DNA of 17,173 bases from a virus (taxonomy: Duplodnaviria > Heunggongvirae > Uroviricota > Caudoviricetes). Both the position numbers and the translations under genes were made by a program. Under the pieces are notes generated by a model, which was not told the origin of the DNA, searched no databases, and saw only the letters and a list, made by a program, of their open reading frames with translations. The stretch lies in IMG/VR virus record IMGVR_UViG_2675903324_000013; one strand, given 5' to 3'. This document shows positions 1-17,173 of the stretch, one piece after another (positions within the stretch are counted from its first letter, which is position 1; the number at the start of each line of letters is the position of its first letter).

Positions 1-1230
1 ATGAGCAGAGCACTTAACAAACTGAGCGATACACAGCTGAGGAAAATCAACGGCACACCCGCCCAAAAAACAGCCTTTCTTAATGACGGTGGAAACCTGA
101 GCGTCAGGCATTCAACCAGTGGCCTTTTAACCTGGTATTTCACTTACAGGGCCGGAACGGGAAGGGGGGCACCACCGGAACGCATTAAGCTGGGAAATTA
201 TCCTGATCTGAGCCTGAAATCAGCCAGGGAAAAAGCCGCCCAGTGTCGCGCATGGCTGGCAGAGGGGAAAAATCCACGTCATGAAATGAATTACACCGTA
301 CAGGAAGCGTTAAAGCCGGTAACGGTTGGCGATGCGCTCACCTACTGGCTTGAGTCGTACGCAAAGGAAAACCGTGTGGATTATGACCCACTGAAAAAGC
401 GGCTAAATAATCACGTAATACAGCACATTGGCCCTATGCCGCTGGATAAATGCGAGCTACGGCACTGGCTGGCCTGTTTTGATCGGGTGGCAAAGAAAGC
501 CCCTGTTTCCGCCGGGTTCCTGCTACAGACATGCAAGCAGGCGCTTAAGTTCTGCAGGAAGCGGCGCTATGCAATCAGCAACGTTCTTGATGATATGAGT
601 GTGGCGGACGTTGGGAAAAAACCGGATATAAGTGAGCGTGTCTTAAGTAACAAAGAACTTGGCGAATTATTGCAGGCACTGGACAAAAAAATATTTTCCC
701 CTTACTACGTCGCACTAATCCGCCTCCTGATTGTTTTCGGATGCCGGACAGTAGAACTGAGGTTATCGGAGATCGGCGAGTGGGATTTTACCGAAATGCT
801 CTGGACCGTTCCGAAGGAGCACAGCAAAACGAAGGTAGCCATATTCCGGCCCATACCGGAAGCGATACTGCCGTTCGTCACGCAGCTGGTGGAGCAGAAC
901 AGGCACACGGGCTTATTGCTGGGGGAAGTGAAACAGGAAACCAGCGTATCGCAGTACGGCAGATTAGCGCACAGGAGGCTAAAACACCCTCAATGGTCAT
1001 TGCATGACATCCGGCGCACCTTTACAACCATGCTGAACGATTTAGGCGTTGATCCTCACGTCGTGGAGCAGCTTACAGGCCACCAGATGCCAGGAATGCA
1101 ACGCGTGTACAACCATTCCCGCTATATTGATGCGAAACGCAATGCGCTTGATATGTGGGTGGAGCGGTTGGAGATACTGGCGGGAACACATGAAAACGTA
1201 ACCACGCTACCAGTAACCAGAATAAAATAA
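1..1230 (+). CDS. int: Tyrosine recombinase / integrase, P4 (CP4-57) type
   Basis: 409-aa ORF starting at window base 1. C-terminal catalytic region carries the tyrosine-recombinase signature residues (…LHDIRRTFTT…, …GHQ…, …VYNHSRY…). Followed by an AlpA gene as in P4-like islands. Confidence 0.9.
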   Translation: MSRALNKLSDTQLRKINGTPAQKTAFLNDGGNLSVRHSTSGLLTWYFTYRAGTGRGAPPERIKLGNYPDLSLKSAREKAAQCRAWLAEGKNPRHEMNYTVQEALKPVTVGDALTYWLESYAKENRVDYDPLKKRLNNHVIQHIGPMPLDKCELRHWLACFDRVAKKAPVSAGFLLQTCKQALKFCRKRRYAISNVLDDMSVADVGKKPDISERVLSNKELGELLQALDKKIFSPYYVALIRLLIVFGCRTVELRLSEIGEWDFTEMLWTVPKEHSKTKVAIFRPIPEAILPFVTQLVEQNRHTGLLLGEVKQETSVSQYGRLAHRRLKHPQWSLHDIRRTFTTMLNDLGVDPHVVEQLTGHQMPGMQRVYNHSRYIDAKRNALDMWVERLEILAGTHENVTTLPVTRIK

Positions 1231-1247
1231 TTTTTTTCGTGTTTTTT

Positions 1248-1263
1248 CAGTATGCGCATACTG
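1248..1263. promoter_or_regulatory. 16-bp perfect palindrome CAGTATGCGCATACTG just downstream of int stop
   Basis: Reverse complement is identical to the sequence itself; lies in the int-alpA intergenic region. Confidence 0.35.
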
Positions 1264-1279
1264 GATAAGTGCACAGATA

Positions 1280-1319
1280 CAACGTGAAACAATGTGCAAC
1301 AACGTGACACAATCACGAA
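1280..1319. repeat. Four tandem 10-bp phased repeats (caacgtgaaa / caatgtgcaa / caacgtgaca / caatcacgaa)
   Basis: Directly visible with exact 10-bp periodicity between int and alpA; candidate binding array for a recombination-directionality factor or regulator. Confidence 0.5.
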
Positions 1320-1419
1320 CAAGAGGCCAAAAAGAATACAGATTTGTAAGTTGCTGATTTTTAATGCTCAGCTGGTTTTTTATACATTAGTGAATTACGC
1401 GTTAAAGCGTGCGAAAAAA

Positions 1420-1448
1420 GGCATAAAACAAGATTTTATGCCTTTGTA
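1420..1448 (+). terminator. Intrinsic terminator-like hairpin downstream of int
   Basis: 9-bp stem GGCATAAAA / TTTTATGCC with loop CAAGA, A-run before and T-rich tract after, so it could act in both directions. Confidence 0.5.
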
Positions 1449-1604
1449 TTAACATGAATTTAAATGATTTTATCCTGATTATTCCTCTTTCTGTAAACCA
1501 TGCGACACCAACATTTGCCAACTCTGAATCATCCTGACACAATCAGACACATCCCAACGCAATAGAACACGAAATAACTCTTTAAGAAACGAAAGGGGGC
1601 AATA

Positions 1605-1793
1605 GTGTTAAGCACTGATCGGTTTATACGTGAAAAAGAATGCGAAAAGCTAACAGGCCTTAGCCGCTCATGCCGCTACCGCCTGGAAAAGGCCGGACAA
1701 TTCCCATCACGTCGTAAACTTGGTGGGCGTTCTGTTGGCTGGTCTTTATCTGAGGTTTTGGCCTGGAAGGATAGCTGCAAGGCAGTTCACTAA
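1605..1793 (+). CDS. alpA: AlpA-family phage regulatory protein (small HTH activator / excisionase-like)
   Basis: GTG start 5 nt after a GGGGG Shine-Dalgarno; 62 aa with the AlpA pattern …LTGLSRS.RYRL…GQFP…KLGGRSVGW…EV..W. Confidence 0.85.
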   Translation: MLSTDRFIREKECEKLTGLSRSCRYRLEKAGQFPSRRKLGGRSVGWSLSEVLAWKDSCKAVH

Positions 1794-1937
1794 AAAGACT
1801 GGCGGCACACAGTCGCCACACATCCACTAATACAGAGATATAACTATGAAGATTGAATATGCGCCCGAACGTGGGCGGGGATTCGTTCGCCCTGGTGAAA
1901 CTGAAAAACAACAAAATTGGGGTTTTTCAGGCATAAA

Positions 1938-1968
1938 AAAAGCGGCCCCGATATGGAGCCGCCTTTCT
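1938..1968. terminator. Bidirectional terminator-like hairpin between alpA and the minus-strand switch genes
   Basis: A-run, stem AGCGGC / GCCGCC (one wobble), 11-12-nt loop, then T-rich sequence; on the minus strand the stem is followed by TTTTTTT. Confidence 0.45.
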
Positions 1969-2036
1969 GAACAATTAACCTGCTGCGCCTTATGTGTATG
2001 TGATCCCAAACATAAGCACGGGAATGATAGCCGCTA

Positions 2037-2240
2037 TCAGGCTGGTGGGCAATTACCTTGCTTGTTGGGGCCGTATTGTGCTGCCATTTTCATCCGTTCA
2101 GAACGTGAATATTTTTTTAGAAACTCATCAAGGACAAAAGCGCATGGAGCGAATCTTTCTGATTCATGCTCGAGCGCCATATTTTCGTGCTCTCTGTTCG
2201 TTTTTTGCGATGGTGTATTGGTTGATTCTTTATTGGTCAT
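2037..2240 (-). CDS. Hypothetical small protein, MTN… paralogue 1 (67 aa), possibly degenerate
   Basis: ORF whose start codon and first codons sit inside a 59-bp block conserved with the start of ORF 2698..2925 (both begin MTN); no clear Shine-Dalgarno; A-rich strand. Confidence 0.25.
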   Translation of the reverse strand: MTNKESTNTPSQKTNREHENMALEHESERFAPCAFVLDEFLKKYSRSERMKMAAQYGPNKQGNCPPA

Positions 2241-2293
2241 TGTGTGTACCTGTAAAGCAATGCGCCGGAGTTCCTCACGCCACGGCGCTGATG
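2235..2293. repeat. Conserved 59-bp block, copy 1 (ggtcat…ctgtaaagcaatgcgccg…cctcacgccacggcgctgatg)
   Basis: About 90% identical to 2920-2978; contains a 6-bp stem GCGCCG / CGGCGC with a 15-nt loop; spans the MTN start codon on the minus strand. Confidence 0.6.
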
Positions 2294-2297
2294 TTTT

Positions 2298-2402
2298 TTA
2301 TTCTTTGGGTTCAATACCGCGTTGCTGTAATTCTTTTCGGATTATTCGTTTTATCCAAGCTGCTAAAGAGTCATCACCGTCTTGTTGTTGTGCTTTTTCC
2401 AT
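2298..2402 (-). CDS. Very small ORF (34 aa, MEKAQQQDGDDSLAAWIKRIIRKELQQRGIEPKE); possible remnant of the C-terminal helix of an RHH-like repressor
   Basis: Occupies the same position relative to the conserved block as the RHH-like gene 2983..3162; weak C-terminal similarity (AAW/AAM…IKR…R); weak RBS. Confidence 0.15.
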   Translation of the reverse strand: MEKAQQQDGDDSLAAWIKRIIRKELQQRGIEPKE

Positions 2403-2465
2403 CTTTTCCCGTAAGTCAGGATCTAAACGGAACTGGAAAGGAGGATTACCACGCCTTTCATTTTT

Positions 2466-2520
2466 GTGTGTTGACACGTCAATTACACTCCATATAATGT
2501 GTTTATGTGTATATACACAT
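2466..2520 (+). promoter_or_regulatory. Near-consensus sigma70 promoter TTGACA (2471-2476), 16-bp spacer, TATAAT (2493-2498), flanked by GTGT-N4-ACAC operator-like sites
   Basis: Hexamers read directly. GTGTgttgACAC at 2466-2477 overlaps the -35; a 16-bp perfect palindrome ATGTGTATATACACAT at 2505-2520 overlaps the predicted transcription start. Confidence 0.5.
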
Positions 2521-2544
2521 TACACACAACTAGCACAAAAAACA

Positions 2545-2578
2545 ACGCCCCGCAGTGATGGGAACACATACGGGGCGT
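2545..2578 (-). terminator. Conserved stem-loop, copy 1: 8-bp GC-rich stem ACGCCCCG / CGGGGCGT with 18-nt loop; followed by a T-tract on the minus strand
   Basis: Homologous to 3293-3325 with one compensatory base-pair change in the stem and a near-identical loop (…GGAACACATA…). Confidence 0.4.
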
Positions 2579-2697
2579 CTAACCAAACCATTAATTGAGG
2601 TAACGATTATGGCTATAAAAGAGCATAGCTTACTCTTTATACACACACAAACGCCCCGGAAACGGAATAATCCGTTTCATAGTTCGGTTTTGTGTAC

Positions 2698-2925
2698 TCA
2701 TCCTGGCGGGCGATTCTTACGGGACTTTAGCCGCCGTGGGCAGCTTGCTAAAAATGCCTCCAACGCGAATAGTCCAGGTTTCATTTCTATCGGTATTAGT
2801 TGGATATTCAGAGGATTAGCCAGTTCGGCTTCAAGGCGAGCACAGGTTTCTAACTGCCTTTGCCGAATGATTTCATCTTCTTGCGTCTGCGTGTCTTGTA
2901 TTGGTGATAGTGTGTTGTTGGTCAT
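2698..2925 (-). CDS. Hypothetical small protein, MTN… paralogue 2 (75 aa)
   Basis: Start codon inside conserved block copy 2, directly downstream of the RHH-like gene on the same strand and in the same frame phase; helical-looking segment EDEIIRQRQLETCARLEAELAN. Confidence 0.35.
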   Translation of the reverse strand: MTNNTLSPIQDTQTQEDEIIRQRQLETCARLEAELANPLNIQLIPIEMKPGLFALEAFLASCPRRLKSRKNRPPG

Positions 2926-2978
2926 GGTACTGCCCTGTAAAGCAATGCGCCGTAGTACCTCACGCCACGGCGCTGATG
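2920..2978. repeat. Conserved 59-bp block, copy 2
   Basis: Same stem GCGCCG / CGGCGC (2947-2952 / 2968-2973); differs from copy 1 mainly in the loop and flanks. Confidence 0.6.
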
Positions 2979-2982
2979 GTGA

Positions 2983-3162
2983 TTATTCTGATTCTTTGGT
3001 CTTGCGGCGCTGGCGGCGTTTGATTTCGCCGCGCATGGCTGCGTTTATAAACTGCCCCGTGCTTTCACCTTCTTCTTTCACGTTCTCCATGCCTTCAATA
3101 ATTTCATGGGCAATACGTGCAGTTACAGATTGTGATTTTGCATTCTTTGGACCCGTTGCCAT
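2983..3162 (-). CDS. Putative ribbon-helix-helix (CopG/Arc/MetJ-like) DNA-binding protein; candidate switch repressor
   Basis: ATG at 3162 preceded by GAGGGG with 6-nt spacing. 59 aa with an N-terminal basic beta-strand (SQSVTARIA) followed by two helices (HEIIEGMENVKEEG / TGQFINAAMRGEI) and a basic tail. Operator-like boxes lie immediately upstream. The six-frame track start at 3201 lacks an RBS. Confidence 0.4.
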   Translation of the reverse strand: MATGPKNAKSQSVTARIAHEIIEGMENVKEEGESTGQFINAAMRGEIKRRQRRKTKESE

Positions 3163-3183
3163 GTTTAACCCCTCATGTTTTTG

Positions 3184-3264
3184 GTGTAAGACAATATACA
3201 CGAAAAAAAAATATTTTGAAGGGTTGACGTGTAAGACACCGTTATTTTACATTGTGTCTTACAC
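3184..3264. promoter_or_regulatory. Divergent promoter-operator region: three GTGTaagACAC boxes and back-to-back promoters
   Basis: Boxes at 3184-3193, 3229-3239 and inverted at 3254-3264. Leftward promoter: -35 TTCAAA / 16 bp / -10 TATATT (complement of 3193-3220). Rightward promoter: -35 TTGACG (3224-3229) with a weak -10 (TTACAT or TACATT) about 17-18 bp downstream. Confidence 0.45.
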
Positions 3265-3292
3265 CTTGTTAATGCAAGGTACAGAAAAGACG

Positions 3293-3325
3293 AAACCCCG
3301 CAGTGCTGGAACACATACGGGGCTT
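3293..3325 (-). terminator. Conserved stem-loop, copy 2: stem AAACCCCG / CGGGGCTT with 17-nt loop; T-rich tract on the minus strand
   Basis: Homologue of 2545-2578; lies in the 5' leader of the rightward operon and upstream of the leftward promoter. Confidence 0.4.
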
Positions 3326-3354
3326 CTAACCAACAACGTAAACTAGGAGCCGTT

Positions 3355-3552
3355 ATGGTTGCTGTAAATCATATACCACACCTTGTACACACACAAACTG
3401 CCTTTGTGTGGCGTTTTCTGGCACTGAGTGCCGGAGAATCTCAAATCATCCACGTCACCGCCTGGACGGAACGCGAAGCGCGTAGCCGTTGCCCGTCCGG
3501 TTGTGTTGCTGTATTTGCCGCCCGTATTCGTCAGGAGGTGCGCCATGATTAA
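3355..3552 (+). CDS. Hypothetical protein (65 aa), first gene of the rightward small-ORF operon
   Basis: AGGAG 6 nt upstream of the ATG; stop overlaps the next start (ATGATTAA); the first ~15 codons are conserved with a degenerate copy at 2609. Confidence 0.4.
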   Translation: MVAVNHIPHLVHTQTAFVWRFLALSAGESQIIHVTAWTEREARSRCPSGCVAVFAARIRQEVRHD

Positions 3553-3757
3553 TCTGTCACTTACTGACCTTAACCGCATTCAGTTTCGTGAGAAATTCAC
3601 AGGGCAGCTACTGGTCAATGTGGATAAAGGTCGCGTGGTGTGTAATTACTACTTACCAGATGAAGCAATTGTCGCCACAAGGGAATCATTACAGGAAATC
3701 ACAAAACGTGCCGGAATGATTAACACGAATATTCAGGGGATGCTTTATGCACAATAA
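3545..3757 (+). CDS. Hypothetical protein (70 aa)
   Basis: ATG at 3545 preceded by AGGAGG; the six-frame track ORF 3428..3757 has an upstream start without an RBS. Confidence 0.45.
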   Translation: MINLSLTDLNRIQFREKFTGQLLVNVDKGRVVCNYYLPDEAIVATRESLQEITKRAGMINTNIQGMLYAQ

Positions 3758-3986
3758 AACCACACCGGACGCAGCCGCCGAAGCCATCAAAACGCTGATG
3801 CACGCGCTGATTGATATTTCTGTTATCGCGGACAGGGCACATAAGCACGCCACCAGCGAAACAGAATATGCCGGGGCTTTCGTTCCTCACTCACTGGCTG
3901 TTATGCAATTTAGTGCTGATATGGCACTGAATGAGGCTAAAACCATCCTGATTACTGATTGTGAAAATGGGGGGGGTTATGCGTGA
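3747..3986 (+). CDS. Hypothetical protein (79 aa)
   Basis: ORF with GGGGA RBS; short overlap with its neighbours, consistent with an operon. Confidence 0.5.
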   Translation: MHNKTTPDAAAEAIKTLMHALIDISVIADRAHKHATSETEYAGAFVPHSLAVMQFSADMALNEAKTILITDCENGGGYA

Positions 3987-4212
3987 TGATCGTTTTAATT
4001 CCCTGAAACAAGAATTTTCCGGCGTTCCTGATGATGCGGCTGATGCGCTTTCGTCAATGCCAGAACTTATTAGAGCGGCTTTTTTCTTACTTTCCACGAA
4101 AGAATATAAATCAACGGGACTTGATGTACTGAATATCGCCGCCGATTATGCGGAATATGTGGCAGAGGCGCGTTACAGAAGAAAATTTCCTGAGGATGTA
4201 AGCCATGCGTGA
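3979..4212 (+). CDS. Hypothetical protein (about 77 aa; start uncertain, alternative GTG at 3961)
   Basis: ATGCGTGA overlap with the upstream stop; G-run RBS. Confidence 0.4.
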   Translation: MRDDRFNSLKQEFSGVPDDAADALSSMPELIRAAFFLLSTKEYKSTGLDVLNIAADYAEYVAEARYRRKFPEDVSHA

Positions 4213-4438
4213 TATTTATCTTGAAACAATAGACCGCGCATCACTTGCACTTTCTCACAGTGAAAACATGATGGAAATATTGCGGATGTGCCTTGAATCC
4301 TTTGGCGATAATGAACGTAATGCAAAAAAAACGCGGATTATTACATCATTAATAACGCTTCTTGAGCCTGTAATAAATGAGTTGCAGGAAATAGAGACAT
4401 TGCACGACAGATATAACGAACAGCACACCGGAGAATAA
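4205..4438 (+). CDS. Hypothetical protein (77 aa)
   Basis: Same ATGCGTGAT start context as the previous gene (coupled translation). Confidence 0.5.
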   Translation: MRDIYLETIDRASLALSHSENMMEILRMCLESFGDNERNAKKTRIITSLITLLEPVINELQEIETLHDRYNEQHTGE

Positions 4439-4443
4439 AAATA

Positions 4444-4743
4444 ATGAAACTTAAATATTCTGGCTTAACTGCCAGTGGCAACACTCACCCTAAATTTACG
4501 CGCGGTGATATTTACCGCGACCAGTACGGCGGCACGGTAATGATTAAGGGCGTGGCGGGACGGTGCGTAACTTACCGCCGTGAAGGTTACGAATATGATT
4601 GCGTGATGCCTGTTTATCAGTTCCGGCGTGATTTTTCTCTGGTACAGACCGCGCCGCATAACGTGCCCACCAGCAACGCCAGGGCACGGGCAAACATCCA
4701 GAAGCTGAAAACCATGATTAACGGATTCAGGGGCAAGAAATGA
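4444..4743 (+). CDS. Hypothetical protein (99 aa)
   Basis: GGAGAA RBS; stop overlaps the rep start (ATGA). Confidence 0.5.
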   Translation: MKLKYSGLTASGNTHPKFTRGDIYRDQYGGTVMIKGVAGRCVTYRREGYEYDCVMPVYQFRRDFSLVQTAPHNVPTSNARARANIQKLKTMINGFRGKK

Positions 4744-6137
4744 AAAGCGCACCGAACTTAAAAAAACAGCCTTACGACAAGATGACCGAAGTCATCATTT
4801 TTGCGGGTAGTGATGCGTGGGCACATGCGAAACAGTGGCAGGAACAGGACGGGCGACTGGCTGGCGATAATGTGCCTCCCATTGTGCTGGCTGATGATCA
4901 ACTGGATGAACTGGCAGACCTGAGAATCATCGACGAGGGGCGCTATTGTGTCCGGCTGTACAAGGCAGGCCACATCAGGCCATCAAATATTAATGCCATT
5001 GCGCACAAGCTGGCGGCGGCGGGCGTAACTGATGCGAATTATTACCCCGAAGGGATACACAGCCAGAAGCGGGAGAACTGGCGCGAATATCTGGAACGGG
5101 AGCGGGGGAAAAAGCCAGGGGAAGAACACCACCAGCGAAAAACCACGCTACCGATGAGCGTTGGATCTGCCGGATATGACACGCAATTAGATTACGTGGT
5201 AAAGGGGATTATTCCGGCATCGTCGCTATGCAGCATATACGGGGCAAGCGGTTCCTATAAATCATTCCTTGCGGGTTCGTGGGCGTGTCACGTTTCCACG
5301 GGCCGCCAGTGGGGAGGCCGCAGGGTGGCGCATGGCGCTGTTCTCTATGTGGTTGGTGAAGGCGGTATCGGCGTTCCGCGTCGTGTAAAAGCCTGGGAGG
5401 TTGTGCACGGTGAGCAGGTGAAAAATCTGTATCTGGTAAACCGTCCAGTTTTTCCGGCTGTCCCGCTTGATGTTGATGAACTGGTTATCGCTGCCCGTCA
5501 GGTGGAGCGGGAAACGGGTAAACCTGTACGCATGATTATTCTTGATACTCTGGCGCGTTGCTTTGGTGGCAATGATGAAAATGATTCCCGTGATATGGGG
5601 GCGTTTATCCGTGGGTGTGACGAGCTTAAACGGCGCACAGGGGCCACGGTGCTGGTGGTTCACCATTCCGGCAAGGATGAGACGAAAGGCGCGCGCGGTT
5701 CCAGTGCATTTCGTGCTTCGCTGGATGCTGAATACCGGATACGCAGGGAGGACGCAGGAAGCGAAGCGCTGGTTATCTCATGCACCAAAATGAAGGACGC
5801 GGAGGAACTCAAAGAGGCTGCCTATGATTTGCGGGTGGTGGAGCTTTTTACCGACGCTGACGGGGAGTTAATCACGTCGCTGGTGGTGGTGGATAAGCCG
5901 CGCCCTCCCGTTGAACTGGAGCGCATCGAGGAGGCAGGCAACAAGACGGAAAACCATACCGCACTATGGGGGTGCATCCGTTCACGCACACAGAACGGCG
6001 ACAAGTGCACGATCCCGCTGTTACGTGATGACATGAAACGGCTTGGGTATGACGTGAAAAATATGCGGCGATGGTTAGCCAAACTGGAAAAAGACGCCGT
6101 GATTTACATTGATGGTGATGATGTAGGACCACTGTAA
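4740..6137 (+). CDS. Replication protein: RepA-like / AAA_25-type RecA-fold ATPase with C-terminal presumed DNA-binding region
   Basis: P-loop-like motif GASGSYKS (non-canonical), Walker-B-like RMIILDTLAR, and LVVHHSGKDETKGARGSSAF typical of RepA/AAA_25 helicase-loader proteins; immediately followed by an iteron array. Confidence 0.65.
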   Translation: MKSAPNLKKQPYDKMTEVIIFAGSDAWAHAKQWQEQDGRLAGDNVPPIVLADDQLDELADLRIIDEGRYCVRLYKAGHIRPSNINAIAHKLAAAGVTDANYYPEGIHSQKRENWREYLERERGKKPGEEHHQRKTTLPMSVGSAGYDTQLDYVVKGIIPASSLCSIYGASGSYKSFLAGSWACHVSTGRQWGGRRVAHGAVLYVVGEGGIGVPRRVKAWEVVHGEQVKNLYLVNRPVFPAVPLDVDELVIAARQVERETGKPVRMIILDTLARCFGGNDENDSRDMGAFIRGCDELKRRTGATVLVVHHSGKDETKGARGSSAFRASLDAEYRIRREDAGSEALVISCTKMKDAEELKEAAYDLRVVELFTDADGELITSLVVVDKPRPPVELERIEEAGNKTENHTALWGCIRSRTQNGDKCTIPLLRDDMKRLGYDVKNMRRWLAKLEKDAVIYIDGDDVGPL

Positions 6138-6340
6138 AAAGTGAGTAGCAAAAGTGAGTAATGGTGAGGTTTTTACAAAATATTAACACGATTACTCACT
6201 TTCTCACCTGTATACATACTCAAAAGTGAGGAGTAAAAAAATGCTTATGAAACATGCACATATAAAACACGAAAATCTCAAGCGAGACGAAGTGAGACGC
6301 GTTAAAAAGTGAGGCGTAAAAGTGAGCGCGAGTGAGGAGA
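6137..6340. repeat. Iteron array, putative origin of replication: about 10 copies of AAAGTGAG(G/T) in both orientations
   Basis: GTGAG at 6141, 6154, 6164, 6226, 6292, 6309, 6322, 6332 and inverted CTCAC at 6195, 6203; spacings of 10 and 13 bp; AT-rich stretch in the middle; directly downstream of the Rep gene. Confidence 0.55.
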
Positions 6341-11544: not shown

Positions 11545-11837
11545 CAGAAGAACTTATCACCCTGGAAGAAGTGAAACTCCATTGCCGTATCGATGGAGAC
11601 GAGGAAGACCAGTTAATCAGCGGATACATTGCCGCATCGCTTGAGGCGTGCCAGATACACATAGGCAGGCGCTTTGATGACGGGCTGGAGTTCACGCCAG
11701 CCATAAAGATTGGCTGCATGATGTTTATCGCTCACCTGTATGAGAATCGCCAGATTGTCGCGGATAACGCAAAAACACGCGTACCCATGACGATTGGCGC
11801 ACTCTGGACGGCTTACCGTGATGTGGGGGTGTACTGA
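11541..11837 (+). CDS. Head-tail connector protein, gp6-like
   Basis: …LEEVKLHCRIDGDEEDQLISGYIAAS…AHLYENRQ…, typical of gp6-like connector proteins; GAGGG RBS. Confidence 0.7.
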   Translation: MTEELITLEEVKLHCRIDGDEEDQLISGYIAASLEACQIHIGRRFDDGLEFTPAIKIGCMMFIAHLYENRQIVADNAKTRVPMTIGALWTAYRDVGVY

Positions 11838-12277
11838 TGCCGTGGCAACCATTAAGACGATGCACAGAACCAGGCTGTAACAGGCGCGTTAAATCCGGCA
11901 AGTGTGAGGAGCACAGGCGGGCGGCATGGCGTGCAGAGGATGCCAGACGAGGACACCGCCGCGCGCGTGGATATTCCAGACAGTGGGACAAATACCGCGC
12001 CATGTATCTGAGTAAAAACCCGTTATGCGTGCGATGCCTTGAGAAGGGGATATATACGCCCGCCGTGGTGGTGGATCACATTATCCCGATTAATGGCGGT
12101 GATGATGTTCTCTTCTGGCCCGAATGGAACCATCAACCATTGTGCCAGGCGTGTCATAACCAGAAAACGAAATGGCTTGATCCGGCAACAAAAAGCAAGC
12201 GTGCCGCAGGTGGATTTCGTGAAGAGGAAGAACGGGCCGCTAACCGCAATAACTGGATGTATGACGCTGATGAATGA
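11837..12277 (+). CDS. HNH endonuclease (packaging-associated)
   Basis: Cys-rich N-terminus and …CVRC…VVDHIIPINGG…NHQPLCQACHNQKT…; GGGGG RBS; located just upstream of terS as in HNH-dependent cos packaging systems. Confidence 0.85.
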   Translation: MPWQPLRRCTEPGCNRRVKSGKCEEHRRAAWRAEDARRGHRRARGYSRQWDKYRAMYLSKNPLCVRCLEKGIYTPAVVVDHIIPINGGDDVLFWPEWNHQPLCQACHNQKTKWLDPATKSKRAAGGFREEEERAANRNNWMYDADE

Positions 12278-15712: not shown

Positions 15713-17173
15713 TTATTCATCTTTCGGCGCAGAATGCTGGCGACCAAAAATCACCTCCATCCGCGCACCGCCCAGCATGCTCTCTCCGGCGACGATTTTA
15801 CCCTCATATTGCTCGGTGATTTCGCGGGCTACCGCCAGCCCTACACCTTGCCCAGGGCGTAAAGTATCAACCCGTTGACCACGGTCGAAAATGACCTCTC
15901 GCTTGCTTAATGGAATACCGGGGCCATCATCCTCGACCACAATATAGAGATGCTCGTCGGTTTGCCTTGCAGAAATTTCGACAAACTCGAGGCAATATTT
16001 ACAGGCATTATCCAGCACGTTGCCCATCACCTCGACAAAATCGTTCTGCTCACCGACAAAGCTGATCTCTGGCGAAATATCGAGAGAGATATTGACCCCT
16101 TTGCGTTGATACACTTTGTTCAGCGCTGAGGTGAGATTGTCCAGCAGTGGGGCGACCGGATGCAGCTCGCGGCTGAGCAATGTCCCGCCGCGCATACTGG
16201 CACGATGCAGGTAGTAGCCAATTTGCTGTGAAATGCGGCTGATTTGCTCCAGCATTACCGGCTCAGCATCACTGACGCTCATCTTTTCACTACGCAGAGA
16301 ACGCAGCGTACTTTGCAGCACCGCCAGTGGCGTTTTCAGACTATGGGTCAGGTCGGTGAGCGTCGTACGGTATTTGTCGTAACGTTCGCGTTCACTTTTT
16401 AACAATCGGTTCAGGTTTCGTACCAGACTGGTCAGTTCTCGCGTTGTGGCTGGATTGAGCAATTCGCGGTTATGTTCTTCCAGTTCGCGGACTTCTTTTG
16501 CCAGGGCTTCGATGGGGCGTAAACTCCACCAGGCGGCGACCCACAGCAGCGGGATCACTAACAGCAGATTGGCTGAGAGCACATAGATAAACCAGCTCCA
16601 GACCATATAGGAACTTTTTAGCTCCACCGGAATGGTATCCACCACCACAATGGTTAATTTTGGCATCCGCGATGTTGCCGGGTAGACGTTTACTGCCACC
16701 GAGTGGGTCATCTCCGCGTCGTCATCATCTTCCCGCACTTCCTGCAACTGTTGCTGTATCGAATGATCTCCACTCAGCAAGAGGCTGGTATCGTTAACAT
16801 CCGCTTCAATTTCATGAAAACCATTCGATTTCAGCCAGTCAGGCTGGATCATCTTCATCAGCCAGGGCACGTCACGTTGCGCCCATAAAAGCTGCCCGTT
16901 CTCATCATAAATTAGCGTCATGGTGGGGCTTTGCTTGTCGATATTTTCGGGTAACTCGACATGCAACTTATTGTTTTCCCACTTCGCAAGGGTATAGAAC
17001 AGATTGCTCTCGCCACGTAACAGCCGAAACGTAGTTTTATCGAAACTGACGCTATAACCGATCAGCGCGACCATTCCGTAGGCAAGCGAAAGCACCAGTA
17101 CTACCGCAGCCGTTGCCAACAGAAAACGTACCCGCAGTGAGAGCGGGAAAAAAAGACGCAGTAATTTTTTCAT
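15713..17173 (-). CDS. phoQ: Sensor histidine kinase PhoQ (PhoPQ two-component system), full length
   Basis: 486-aa product whose sequence I recognise as Escherichia coli PhoQ (N-terminus [77 protein letters not shown]…, acidic patch [11 protein letters not shown]-box and ATP-binding motifs); start codon at the last bases of the window. Confidence 0.97.

Follow-up and report, generated by a model that had tools for sequence, protein, structure and literature searches.

Probable immunity cassettes in tandem, with ribbon-helix-helix repressor candidates and a predicted antisense RNA, in an Escherichia coli island of the capsid-forming PICI type

In the immI region of phage P22, two small ribbon-helix-helix (RHH) proteins, Mnt and Arc, act as repressors at divergent promoters that overlap one another; the sar gene of this region specifies a cis-antisense RNA of ~69 nt whose start lies within the 5' end of the regulated gene and which extends over the ribosome site to an intrinsic terminator. 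In P1 and P4, translation of the first open reading frame (ORF) of the operon (icd in P1, kil/eta in P4) decides whether transcription continues into the operon; an RNA repressor blocks this translation, and transcription terminates. These RNAs (C4 and CI) are encoded on the operon strand, released from the leader by processing, and pair with short, separate target sites. Here, we describe a region that recalls both arrangements, found in a 17,173 nt stretch of DNA (IMG/VR record IMGVR_UViG_2675903324_000013; the window in what follows) that represents a genomic island of E. coli. Two modules of ~750 bp lie in tandem between alpA and the replication and packaging operon, and we consider it probable (roughly 0.65) that they are the switch (immunity) region of a satellite of the capsid-forming phage-inducible chromosomal island (cf-PICI) type, present as two tandem copies that each combine an RHH repressor with an antisense RNA.

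Among satellites, the Stl (Rpr) protein of the Staphylococcus aureus pathogenicity islands (SaPIs) and other Gram-positive PICIs is encoded by the satellite, divergently from the operon it controls, and exists in many specificities (PMC6092414). The repressor candidates described here share these traits, but Stl is a large helix-turn-helix protein that is inactivated by helper-phage proteins, whereas those of the island are RHH candidates of 59 aa that are combined with a predicted antisense RNA. For Gram-negative PICIs, AlpA is the only regulator described and the existence of a repressor has been called unclear (PMC6092414); induction has been attributed to AlpA, with no repressor reported (PMC6092414; 10.1101/2022.09.08.507074), and the word 'repressor' does not occur in the paper describing the cf-PICIs (10.1101/2022.09.08.507074). 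The island resembles the cf-PICI EcCIEDL933 and other Gram-negative PICIs in carrying genes for integrase, AlpA, replication, capsid, protease, portal, HNH and terminase in the same order, with alpA directly upstream of the switch region, but differs in that the published descriptions do not mention a layer of repressor, operator and antisense RNA.

As we read the region, each module would consist of a leftward RHH gene, followed by a hairpin (part of a repeat termed block A) and a variable accessory gene, and of a rightward sigma-70 promoter under cassette-specific operators. A leftward antisense RNA, with its promoter in the first codons of the icd-like gene, would cross the AUG and the Shine-Dalgarno (SD) sequence and end at an intrinsic terminator, the 'GC hairpin' of the initial annotation. 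Each repressor would shut its own rightward promoter, and the antisense RNA would anneal to the leader and prevent the first ORF from being translated; if the analogy with c4-icd-ant of P1 and CI-kil/eta of P4 applies, this block would also keep transcription from the replication and packaging genes. Transcripts from module 1 would need to read antisense through the repressor gene of module 2 to reach the operon, so that two locks differing in specificity would guard the operon. The analyses given below document the anatomy of the modules, an RHH fold for the protein encoded in module 2, the RNA structure on the minus strand with its conserved -10 hexamer, and the distribution of these elements; we infer that the RHH proteins bind the operators described, and likewise that the RNA is produced and exerts its effect via translation and polarity.

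The RNA element lies in a second conserved repeat, block C, which includes the ribosome site and start codon of the icd-like frame. Related leaders were collected by two hairpin-anchored searches of viral contigs, and a third set was gathered via the icd-like start motif in order to avoid ascertainment through the hairpin. From this third set, 74 non-redundant leaders, none of them from the window, were aligned in the minus-strand orientation. Two helices are supported, with 93% of cells paired, compensatory changes at 15 of the 22 pairs, and a covariation score of 0.324 as against 0.157 in shuffles (0/500 shuffles reach the observed value). The cells that are not Watson-Crick pairs comprise 199 G·U and only 3 A·C, and since selection on the plus strand would give the reverse, it is minus-strand pairing that is under selection. 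The GC-rich 3' helix, with a U-rich tail behind it (a mean of 5.1 T in the next 10 bases), reads as a putative intrinsic terminator on that strand. Minus-strand folds of the two copies in the window have energies of -33.5 kcal/mol (z = -4.5, module 1) and -33.6 kcal/mol (z = -4.2, module 2), compared with -23.9 (z = -3.2) and -21.2 kcal/mol (z = -0.15) for the respective plus-strand folds. The initial annotation had described a GC-stem hairpin with a conserved loop of 17–18 nt. The hairpins are indeed present (2545–2578 and 3292–3326), but the conservation of the loop does not extend beyond close relatives (among the hairpin-anchored variants the upper stem covaries and the loop changes), and the excess of G·U over A·C places the base-pairing on the minus strand, which does not support a role as a plus-strand leader element.

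A candidate promoter for this RNA is found within the first codons of the icd-like frame. In all 63 parsed relatives, which were gathered through the hairpin and not through this motif, a TAnnnT hexamer (TATGAT, TATGCT, TAGACT, TACACT, TATAAT and others) lies 4 or 10 nt from the complement of the start codon, and the codons beneath it encode differing residues from one relative to another. The predicted promoter of antisense RNA 1 (2622–2650, minus strand) has the -10 TATGCT (2627 to 2622) and a possible -35, TTGTGT (2650 to 2645), inside the truncated icd-like frame of module 1; that of antisense RNA 2 (3368–3396, minus strand) has the -10 TATGAT (3373 to 3368) and the same possible -35 (3396 to 3391). 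The 'first ~15 codons' of the plus-strand gene, taken in the initial annotation for a coding remnant, would thus be conserved at the nucleotide level because the antisense-RNA -10 lies in them, together with the possible -35.

A covariance model (R1) built from the 74 leaders gave exactly two matches in the window, both on the minus strand, while the best plus-strand scores were at most 12.9 bits. Element 1 (2526–2620; 90.8 bits, E = 3e-22) specifies a predicted RNA of ~78 nt, from ~2614 to ~2537, with a 5' stem-loop that displays the anti-SD CCUC in its loop, the terminator stem at 2545–2578 and a U-tract at 2536–2544. In element 2 (3274–3366; 58.2 bits, E = 1e-13), the predicted RNA is ~77 nt long, from ~3360 to ~3284, with the terminator stem at 3292–3326 and the tail GUCUUUUCUG at 3282–3291. 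Given the covariation, the minus-strand wobbles, the U-tract, the conserved -10 and the restriction of model matches to the minus strand, block C is best read as a gene for a predicted cis-antisense RNA of ~78 nt that lies over the ribosome site and AUG of the icd-like gene. An earlier suggestion that module 1 may make a non-coding RNA was right in spirit. Two other candidate roles for these sequences were discarded: a tRNA-like minihelix or RNase P substrate, formed by the plus-strand hairpin and the following ...ACCA (compare the processing of C4/CI), was dropped since the wobble asymmetry puts the pairing on the minus strand, and a plus-strand, terminator-like hairpin followed by GCGUUUUCUG at 3390–3410, considered as a translation-dependent attenuator within the icd-like ORF, was rejected (z = 0.44, and the U-run corresponds to WRFL codons).

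The target of antisense RNA 2 would be the icd-like gene (3355–3552, plus strand), the first gene of the rightward operon, whose ribosome site and AUG fall within the predicted RNA. Its product matches NF033153 with 64.7 bits (E = 5.8e-18; cut-off 25 bits), a match that spans residues 17–60 only. The module-1 frame from ATG 2609 gave no Pfam or NCBIfam match and is not an Icd-like member. Some close relatives, such as NZ_CP043478 (3356–3913), have ~360 extra bases after the first ~28 icd-like codons, where RefSeq annotates a partial pseudogene ('ash family protein') and then a second icd-like gene; this suggests that the same conserved 5' block has been the site of another duplication or recombination.

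The anatomy of RHH repressor candidates, divergent promoters and a predicted antisense RNA matches that of P22 immI (mnt / Pant-arc-ant, sar), and conserved secondary structure is found on the strand opposite the target mRNA, as for sar (15/22 compensatory pairs; 0/500 shuffles). There is, however, no sequence relationship; the first gene is icd-like here and ant in P22, the carrier is a satellite and not a phage, and the predicted RNA differs from sar in having a second helix that displays an anti-SD in its loop. With the immI region of P1/P7 (c4-icd-ant) and with P4 the island shares an RNA repressor, predicted in this case, just upstream of an icd-like first ORF. In P4, the CI RNA (Rfam C4, 74.9 bits) follows the early promoter and precedes an ORF whose start is similar (ATGGCT...CACCCTGAATTT), and isrK (60.8 bits) and c4-a1b1 targets were also detected. 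In contrast to C4/CI, the RNA predicted here is on the opposite strand and fully complementary to its target leader. With P4 as the positive control, Rfam C4 (RF01695), isrK (RF01394) and c4-a1b1 (RF03163) gave no match in the window, nor at E <= 10 over 1900–3700, and more generally no relevant Rfam family was found in the window at the gathering threshold or at E <= 10 over the same region. Conversely, model R1 has no match in the P4 immunity region searched (NC_001609, 6500–10500), and a full-text literature search found no instance of the antisense-RNA sequence. Some Gram-negative PICIs are reported to have C4 and isrK RNAs (PMC10111431), to which the element described here does not belong.

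Related sequences also occur outside E. coli. Klebsiella phage P12620-1 (PQ569648, 106 kb) carries, at 2244–2841, a gene of the RHH1 type described below, palindromic operators, an antisense element (86.8 bits) and an icd-like gene, and so the module is not confined to satellites; it adjoins an antirepressor-like ORF, and the record annotates one long plus-strand coding sequence across it. In Limnobaculum allomyrinae and L. eriocheiris, members of a genus distant from Escherichia, the inner stem and the loop flanks CCCCGCAGUG...GGAACACAUACGGGG are as in the E. coli islands, while the promoters and outer stems differ. The inner stem and loop flanks held in common by such distant genomes suggest horizontal spread of the element.

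Each module encodes, on the minus strand, a repressor candidate of 59 aa. That of module 1, RHH1 (2298–2477; RefSeq WP_000103621), is Arc-like (PHROG phrog_228, 'Arc-like repressor', E = 1.5e-6), and its exact sequence occurs on about 1,000 contigs. Its match to the YlcI/YnfO family NF041551 is discussed with the weaker points below. Diverged genes of the RHH1 type are under purifying selection, with a ratio of nonsynonymous to synonymous changes (pN/pS) of 0.07–0.08, and profile matches of the family to Arc and Mnt in the PDB reach only E = 0.7–0.9. The start codon of RHH1, a GTG (2475–2477), overlaps the -35 TTGACA of the rightward promoter on the opposite strand; an ATG at ~2436 is found likewise in the Klebsiella phage. 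RHH1 may be transcribed by read-through of the antisense-RNA terminator. RHH2 (2983–3162), in module 2, is a YlcI/YnfO-family RHH repressor candidate (NF041551, 64.7 bits, E = 5.5e-18; cut-off 30 bits), and an AlphaFold2 model based on an alignment of 32 homologues (predicted local distance difference test score, pLDDT, 87.5) has an extended N-terminal segment and two helices. The resulting strand-helix-helix topology superposes on solved RHH proteins, in line with the plausible RHH repressor that had been noted in module 2. BLASTP detects no significant similarity between RHH1 and RHH2, but their family profiles match (hhalign, 94.8% probability, E = 5e-8), so the modules are homologous in their repressor genes too, though anciently diverged.

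The rightward promoter of module 1 (2471–2498, plus strand; TTGACA-16-TATAAT) agrees with the consensus at 12/12 positions and that of module 2 (3224–3253, plus strand; TTGACG-18-TACATT) at 9/12, in keeping with the earlier view that module 1 has the better promoter. Module 2 also has a divergent minus-strand promoter, TTAACA-17-TAAAAT (3272 to 3244), which is overlapped by operators. Candidate operators were read from the sequence. In module 1 (2481–2527) they comprise ATTACAC / GTGTA(A/T)T half-sites and the palindrome ATGTGTATATACACAT (2505–2520), and the half-sites recur in single-module relatives with RHH1-type genes. In module 2 (3184–3264) there are three copies of GTGTAAGACA(C), at 3184–3193, 3229–3239 and, inverted, 3254–3264, which overlap the divergent promoters; the second and third form an inverted repeat, GTGTAAGACAC / GTGTCTTACAC, and the copy at 3184–3193 is a further half-site. 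Several relatives share the module-2 layout (one half-site near the repressor gene, one over the -35 and one inverted after the -10) with other cores, and at least seven different promoter/operator sequences are found upstream of the same leader in related loci. Across cassette types, the residues of the beta-strand that is predicted to read DNA in YlcI/YnfO-type proteins covary with the operator core: QSVTARI occurs with GTGTAAGACAC, QLTTVRV with GTGTGTTTCA, QMTTVRI with GTGTATTTCA, QQIVSRV with GTGGCATTCA and QTVAARV with GTGTT(C/T)AACAC. This fits the pattern expected of cognate repressor/operator pairs with different specificities, for which binding is predicted, and it supports the proposal of the initial annotation that the two operator sets could represent two immunity specificities.

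The initial annotation had depicted the modules as homologous but diverged, with one intact and the other apparently degenerate. A repeat search of the window found a direct repeat of 75 nt with 84% identity (2230–2304 and 2915–2989), which is block A and extends the 59 bp block first noticed across the start codon of an MTN... frame, as well as repeats of 26–28 nt around the hairpins (2534–2586 and 3282–3333; 79–96% identity). Pairwise alignment of the two stretches of ~700 bp, the check that had been proposed, showed DNA-level likeness confined to blocks A and C; the genes and the promoter/operator DNA between the blocks did not align. Block C (~2534–2656 and 3282–3400) includes an A-rich tract, the hairpin, the ribosome site and the ATG (2609 and 3355), and continues to ...TACACACACAAAC at 2652 and 3398. 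The homology stops at 2656, directly after the possible -35 of antisense RNA 1, from which it follows that module 1 retains the antisense-RNA gene whole and nothing further of the icd-like gene. Together with the matching repressor profiles, these alignments bear out a tandem of homologous, diverged modules. The supposed degeneracy of module 1 is contradicted by an intact RHH1 (pN/pS 0.07–0.08 in its family), a consensus promoter and a complete antisense element that scores 90.8 bits against 58.2 for element 2. Nor is module 1 made up only of gene fragments, since the ORFs at 2298–2477 (59 aa) and 2037–2240 (67 aa) are intact and annotated in RefSeq; the icd-like ORF, cut after ~15 codons, is the only truncated part. 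Both modules look functional.

Typical relatives have one module, as judged from BLAST searches against oriented loci, in which window positions 1–2656 and 3280–6158 map to overlapping positions of a single leader. A search with model R1 found two copies in 11 of 50 loci, so the survey of related islands that had been suggested gives one module in most and two in a minority. Among 5,426 complete E. coli genomes, 1,491 have the leader block and 110 have the junction between modules. The junction (2654–2697) coincides with a hairpin downstream of the accessory gene MTN2 that is a candidate terminator of minus-strand operon 2 (-23.2 kcal/mol, z = -2.1). Apart from single-base differences, its sequence is the same in every two-module locus sampled, and in all of them one and the same MTN2 allele adjoins, through its 3' flank, the truncated icd-like start that holds the antisense-RNA promoter. 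The repressor/operator cassettes of these loci differ on both sides of the junction, as do some of the terminator loops, with at least two cassette types in position 1 and at least five in position 2. One common junction with differing cassettes on either side implies that the tandem arose once and then exchanged cassettes. A single recombination would have joined the antisense-RNA gene of one cassette to the accessory-gene 3' flank of another, and cassettes at both positions have presumably since been swapped through the conserved blocks A and C.

Long stretches of the plus strand of the modules are free of stop codons. One open frame, L1, runs for 250 codons (1846–2598, plus strand), antisense to MTN1 and RHH1, and ends 10 nt before ATG 2609; a second, L2, runs for 245 codons from the truncated icd-like start (2609–3346, plus strand), antisense to MTN2 and RHH2, and ends 8 nt before ATG 3355. 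With each frame ending 8–10 nt before the next ATG, the plus strand from alpA onward forms an unbroken chain of ORFs, and L1 and L2 run across accessory and repressor genes, promoters, operators and the RNA terminator. At least 200 open codons lie directly upstream of, or in frame with, the icd-like ATG in 74 of 131 distinct leader contexts. The open frame shares its third codon positions with the minus-strand gene, and it is stop-free across 28 of 38 distinct RHH-like genes, compared with 11.7 expected when codons are resampled and the protein is kept (among the 38 ORFs chosen, a few seem spurious). No bias of this kind is seen in control genes of the island, with 9 open windows and 12.0 expected. 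One hypothesis is that the frames are kept open to let ribosomes go on translating read-through transcripts and to couple this translation to the icd-like start.

Other explanations of these features need to be considered. Module 1 could be, in line with a suggestion of the initial annotation, a recent, neutral or decaying by-product of unequal recombination that at most titrates a regulator, and the truncated icd-like ORF, the single junction that points to one origin, and the small share of leader-bearing genomes with a tandem would all fit such a history. An intact repressor ORF from a family under purifying selection, a promoter that agrees with the consensus throughout, and an antisense element that is complete and outscores its module-2 counterpart would not be expected of it, while the exchange of cassettes at both positions since the founding event implies persistence through many recombination events; overall, we regard this explanation as unlikely, though one to be kept in mind. 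Blocks A and C might also be mere homology arms for cassette swapping that lack any regulatory role. Many different RHH/operator cassettes are flanked by this pair of blocks, and mosaic BLAST segments fit exchange at these places, but the compensatory changes, strand-specific wobbles and conserved promoter hexamer of block C are unexpected of passive arms, which leaves this a very improbable account. It is in any case compatible with the switch-region reading, as a functional RNA gene can double as a recombination arm.

Two further explanations assign the conserved features to the plus strand. The hairpin could have its role in the icd-like leader, for instance in stabilising or processing the mRNA or in binding an antiterminator or regulator, with no antisense RNA involved. 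The leader necessarily holds a complementary hairpin, its module-1 fold is better than that of shuffled sequences (z = -3.2), ...ACCA is conserved after the stem, and the P4/P1 RNA found at the same position (C4/CI) comes from the plus, operon strand. Yet the mismatches in the 74 sequences fall almost only where the minus strand can wobble, the U-tract is on the minus side only, the plus-strand fold of module 2 is no better than shuffles, model R1 scores no higher than 12.9 bits on the plus strand, and the window lacks matches to Rfam C4 or isrK, so that we give this explanation very little weight. Alternatively, L1 and L2 could be real coding sequence and the conserved blocks in part a matter of codon-level conservation. 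The length of both frames (~250 codons), their close approach to the next ATG, the frequency of long open frames among leader contexts and the excess of stop-free frames across RHH-like genes, absent from the controls, are all in line with this. Against these stand the stronger selection on the minus-strand gene (pN/pS 0.07–0.08, compared with 0.24–0.25 for the plus frame) and the support from families and fold, which belongs to the minus-strand genes. The plus-frame segment that was scanned (2609–2800) has no Pfam or NCBIfam match, and the products are rich in Cys; the frames extend over promoters, operators and terminators, and cassettes do not share their sequence. In addition, blocks A and C show covariation of the RNA type and not codon periodicity. 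Coding by L1 and L2 appears quite unlikely on this evidence.

A number of observations weigh against the switch-region reading itself. The antisense promoter is recognised by its conserved -10 only, as the -35 is weak (TTGTGT, 3/6) and overlaps coding or terminator sequence; simple promoter and terminator scans flagged neither this promoter nor the terminator, the terminator stems have a bulge and an unusually long upper part, and the module-2 element lacks the canonical 5' stem-loop of the antisense-RNA family as defined by model R1. The match of RHH1 to NF041551 (20 bits, E = 5e-4) is under the curated cut-off of 30 bits, for which reason it was not filed as a YlcI/YnfO member, and the promoter scan found no convincing minus-strand promoter for RHH1. 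Candidate operators were assigned by symmetry and co-variation alone. The tandem is present in about 7% of carrier genomes, a share as compatible with a neutral product of recombination as with a selected one, and a repression layer may be dispensable, given that published work on Gram-negative PICIs credits AlpA and reports no repressor.

Block A is an element of ~60 nt that extends from the RHH stop to the accessory start and folds on the minus strand into a hairpin whose loop contains GGYGUGAGG. Copy 1 (2230–2304, minus strand; 84% identical to 2915–2989), between the RHH1 stop and the MTN1 start, contains the hairpin GCGCCG(15 nt)CGGCGC at 2262–2288, with GGCGUGAGGAACUC in the loop, and copy 2 (2915–2989, minus strand) has its hairpin at 2947–2973, as seen from the repeat and the fold. 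Among related loci, block A follows at least six types of RHH cassette and precedes several different accessory genes, and in one variant both arms are changed to GUGCCG/CGGUGC, which pair by wobble on the minus strand only. Pairing of its loop (GUGAGGAAC) with the terminator loop of the antisense RNA (GUUCC..CAC) was considered and rejected, as relatives with other terminator loops keep the same block A. The loop sequence GGCGUGAGGAACUCC resembles GAGCGUGAGAACUCC, which lies just after the CI RNA of P4 (1893–1918 of the P4 locus examined), and GGGCGUGAGAACCC in the a1b1 target region of P4. For copy 1, the best local alignment to a 4 kb segment of P4 falls just after the CI RNA (score 32; 0/300 shuffles), while copy 2 gave no signal against this segment (29/300 shuffles) and a BLAST search of the phage collection did not recover P4. 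A role for block A as a target of the P4 seqC type is left as a lead, and a C4-type RNA supplied by a co-resident element may act on it.

The accessory genes themselves are dissimilar. MTN1 (2037–2240, minus strand), the second gene of minus-strand operon 1, encodes 67 aa (phrog_21027, E = 2e-12; RefSeq WP_000182306) and is found as an exact sequence on about 997 contigs. MTN2 (2698–2925, minus strand), an ORF of 75 aa, occurs exactly on 162 contigs, has no family match in Pfam, NCBIfam or PHROG, and is without annotation in the two RefSeq relatives examined. BLASTP found no significant similarity between the two, and they have in common only their first residues, which belong to block A. Operon 1 is closed by an intrinsic terminator (1935–1963, minus strand; GGCGGCUCC...GGGGCCGC followed by U7), with a predicted energy of -22.4 kcal/mol (z = -3.5; 0/200 shuffles as stable). 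One two-module locus (IMGVR_UViG_2778261567_000015) keeps RHH1 without MTN1 and block A copy 1, which indicates that the accessory gene is dispensable for the cassette.

The island begins with a gene for a tyrosine integrase (1–1230), followed by alpA (1605–1793, plus strand), the switch region and the rightward operon. The AlpA-family regulator, upstream neighbour of the switch region, matches Pfam Phage_AlpA (E = 5e-18) and is annotated as a helix-turn-helix regulator in RefSeq relatives. The operon consists of the icd-like gene (3355–3552), small ORFs, and genes for an AAA_25/RepA-type helicase, SSB, major capsid protein, prohead protease, portal, HNH, TerS and TerL, and Pfam matches in the window comprise Phage_integrase, Phage_AlpA, AAA_25, SSB, Phage_capsid, Peptidase_S78, Phage_portal, HNH, Terminase_4 and TerL. 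Family scans of the window proteins, which covered part of the small ORFs, found no tail-protein family. Judged by its genes, the set is that of a cf-PICI (int and alpA, replication, its own capsid, protease, portal and terminase, and no tail-family match), as described previously (10.1101/2022.09.08.507074). Induction by a helper phage and packaging into small capsids of their own that receive helper tails are experimental properties of cf-PICIs (10.1101/2022.09.08.507074), and HK106 and HK446 are published helpers of EcCIEDL933. The HNH endonuclease gene (11837–12277) immediately precedes those for the terminase subunits, an order also seen in cos packaging systems that depend on HNH. On its right, the island is flanked in the chromosome by phoQ (15713–17173, minus strand), inside which the window ends, and roxA adjoins near-identical DNA in bovine and human E. 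coli isolates.

Taken together, the tandem immunity cassettes, with their RHH repressor candidates and a new predicted antisense RNA, point to how such islands may be kept silent. That they form a repression layer so far undescribed, made up of swappable RHH/operator cassettes and a new family of cis-antisense small RNAs directed against an icd-like leader ORF, and that the stop-free plus strand is in addition selected, is a tentative proposal which, taken as a whole, is less likely to be right than wrong. If it holds, read-through from the alpA side or from an upstream module would stay translated, escape Rho-dependent polarity, cross the repressor gene in antisense and be coupled in translation to the start of the icd-like gene; induction by AlpA could in that case get past the protein and the RNA repressor alike, and the tandem would let the island answer to two different inducers. 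A stop-free antisense frame, if selected, would be an unusual case of sequence kept open for the act of translation and not for its product. PICI-type satellites are common in Enterobacterales, and the region provides candidates with coordinates, namely small RHH proteins with matched candidate operators of many specificities and a structured antisense RNA absent from Rfam. This RNA family could enter annotation pipelines, and the questions of how the islands stay silent and how helper specificity is set are now directly testable.

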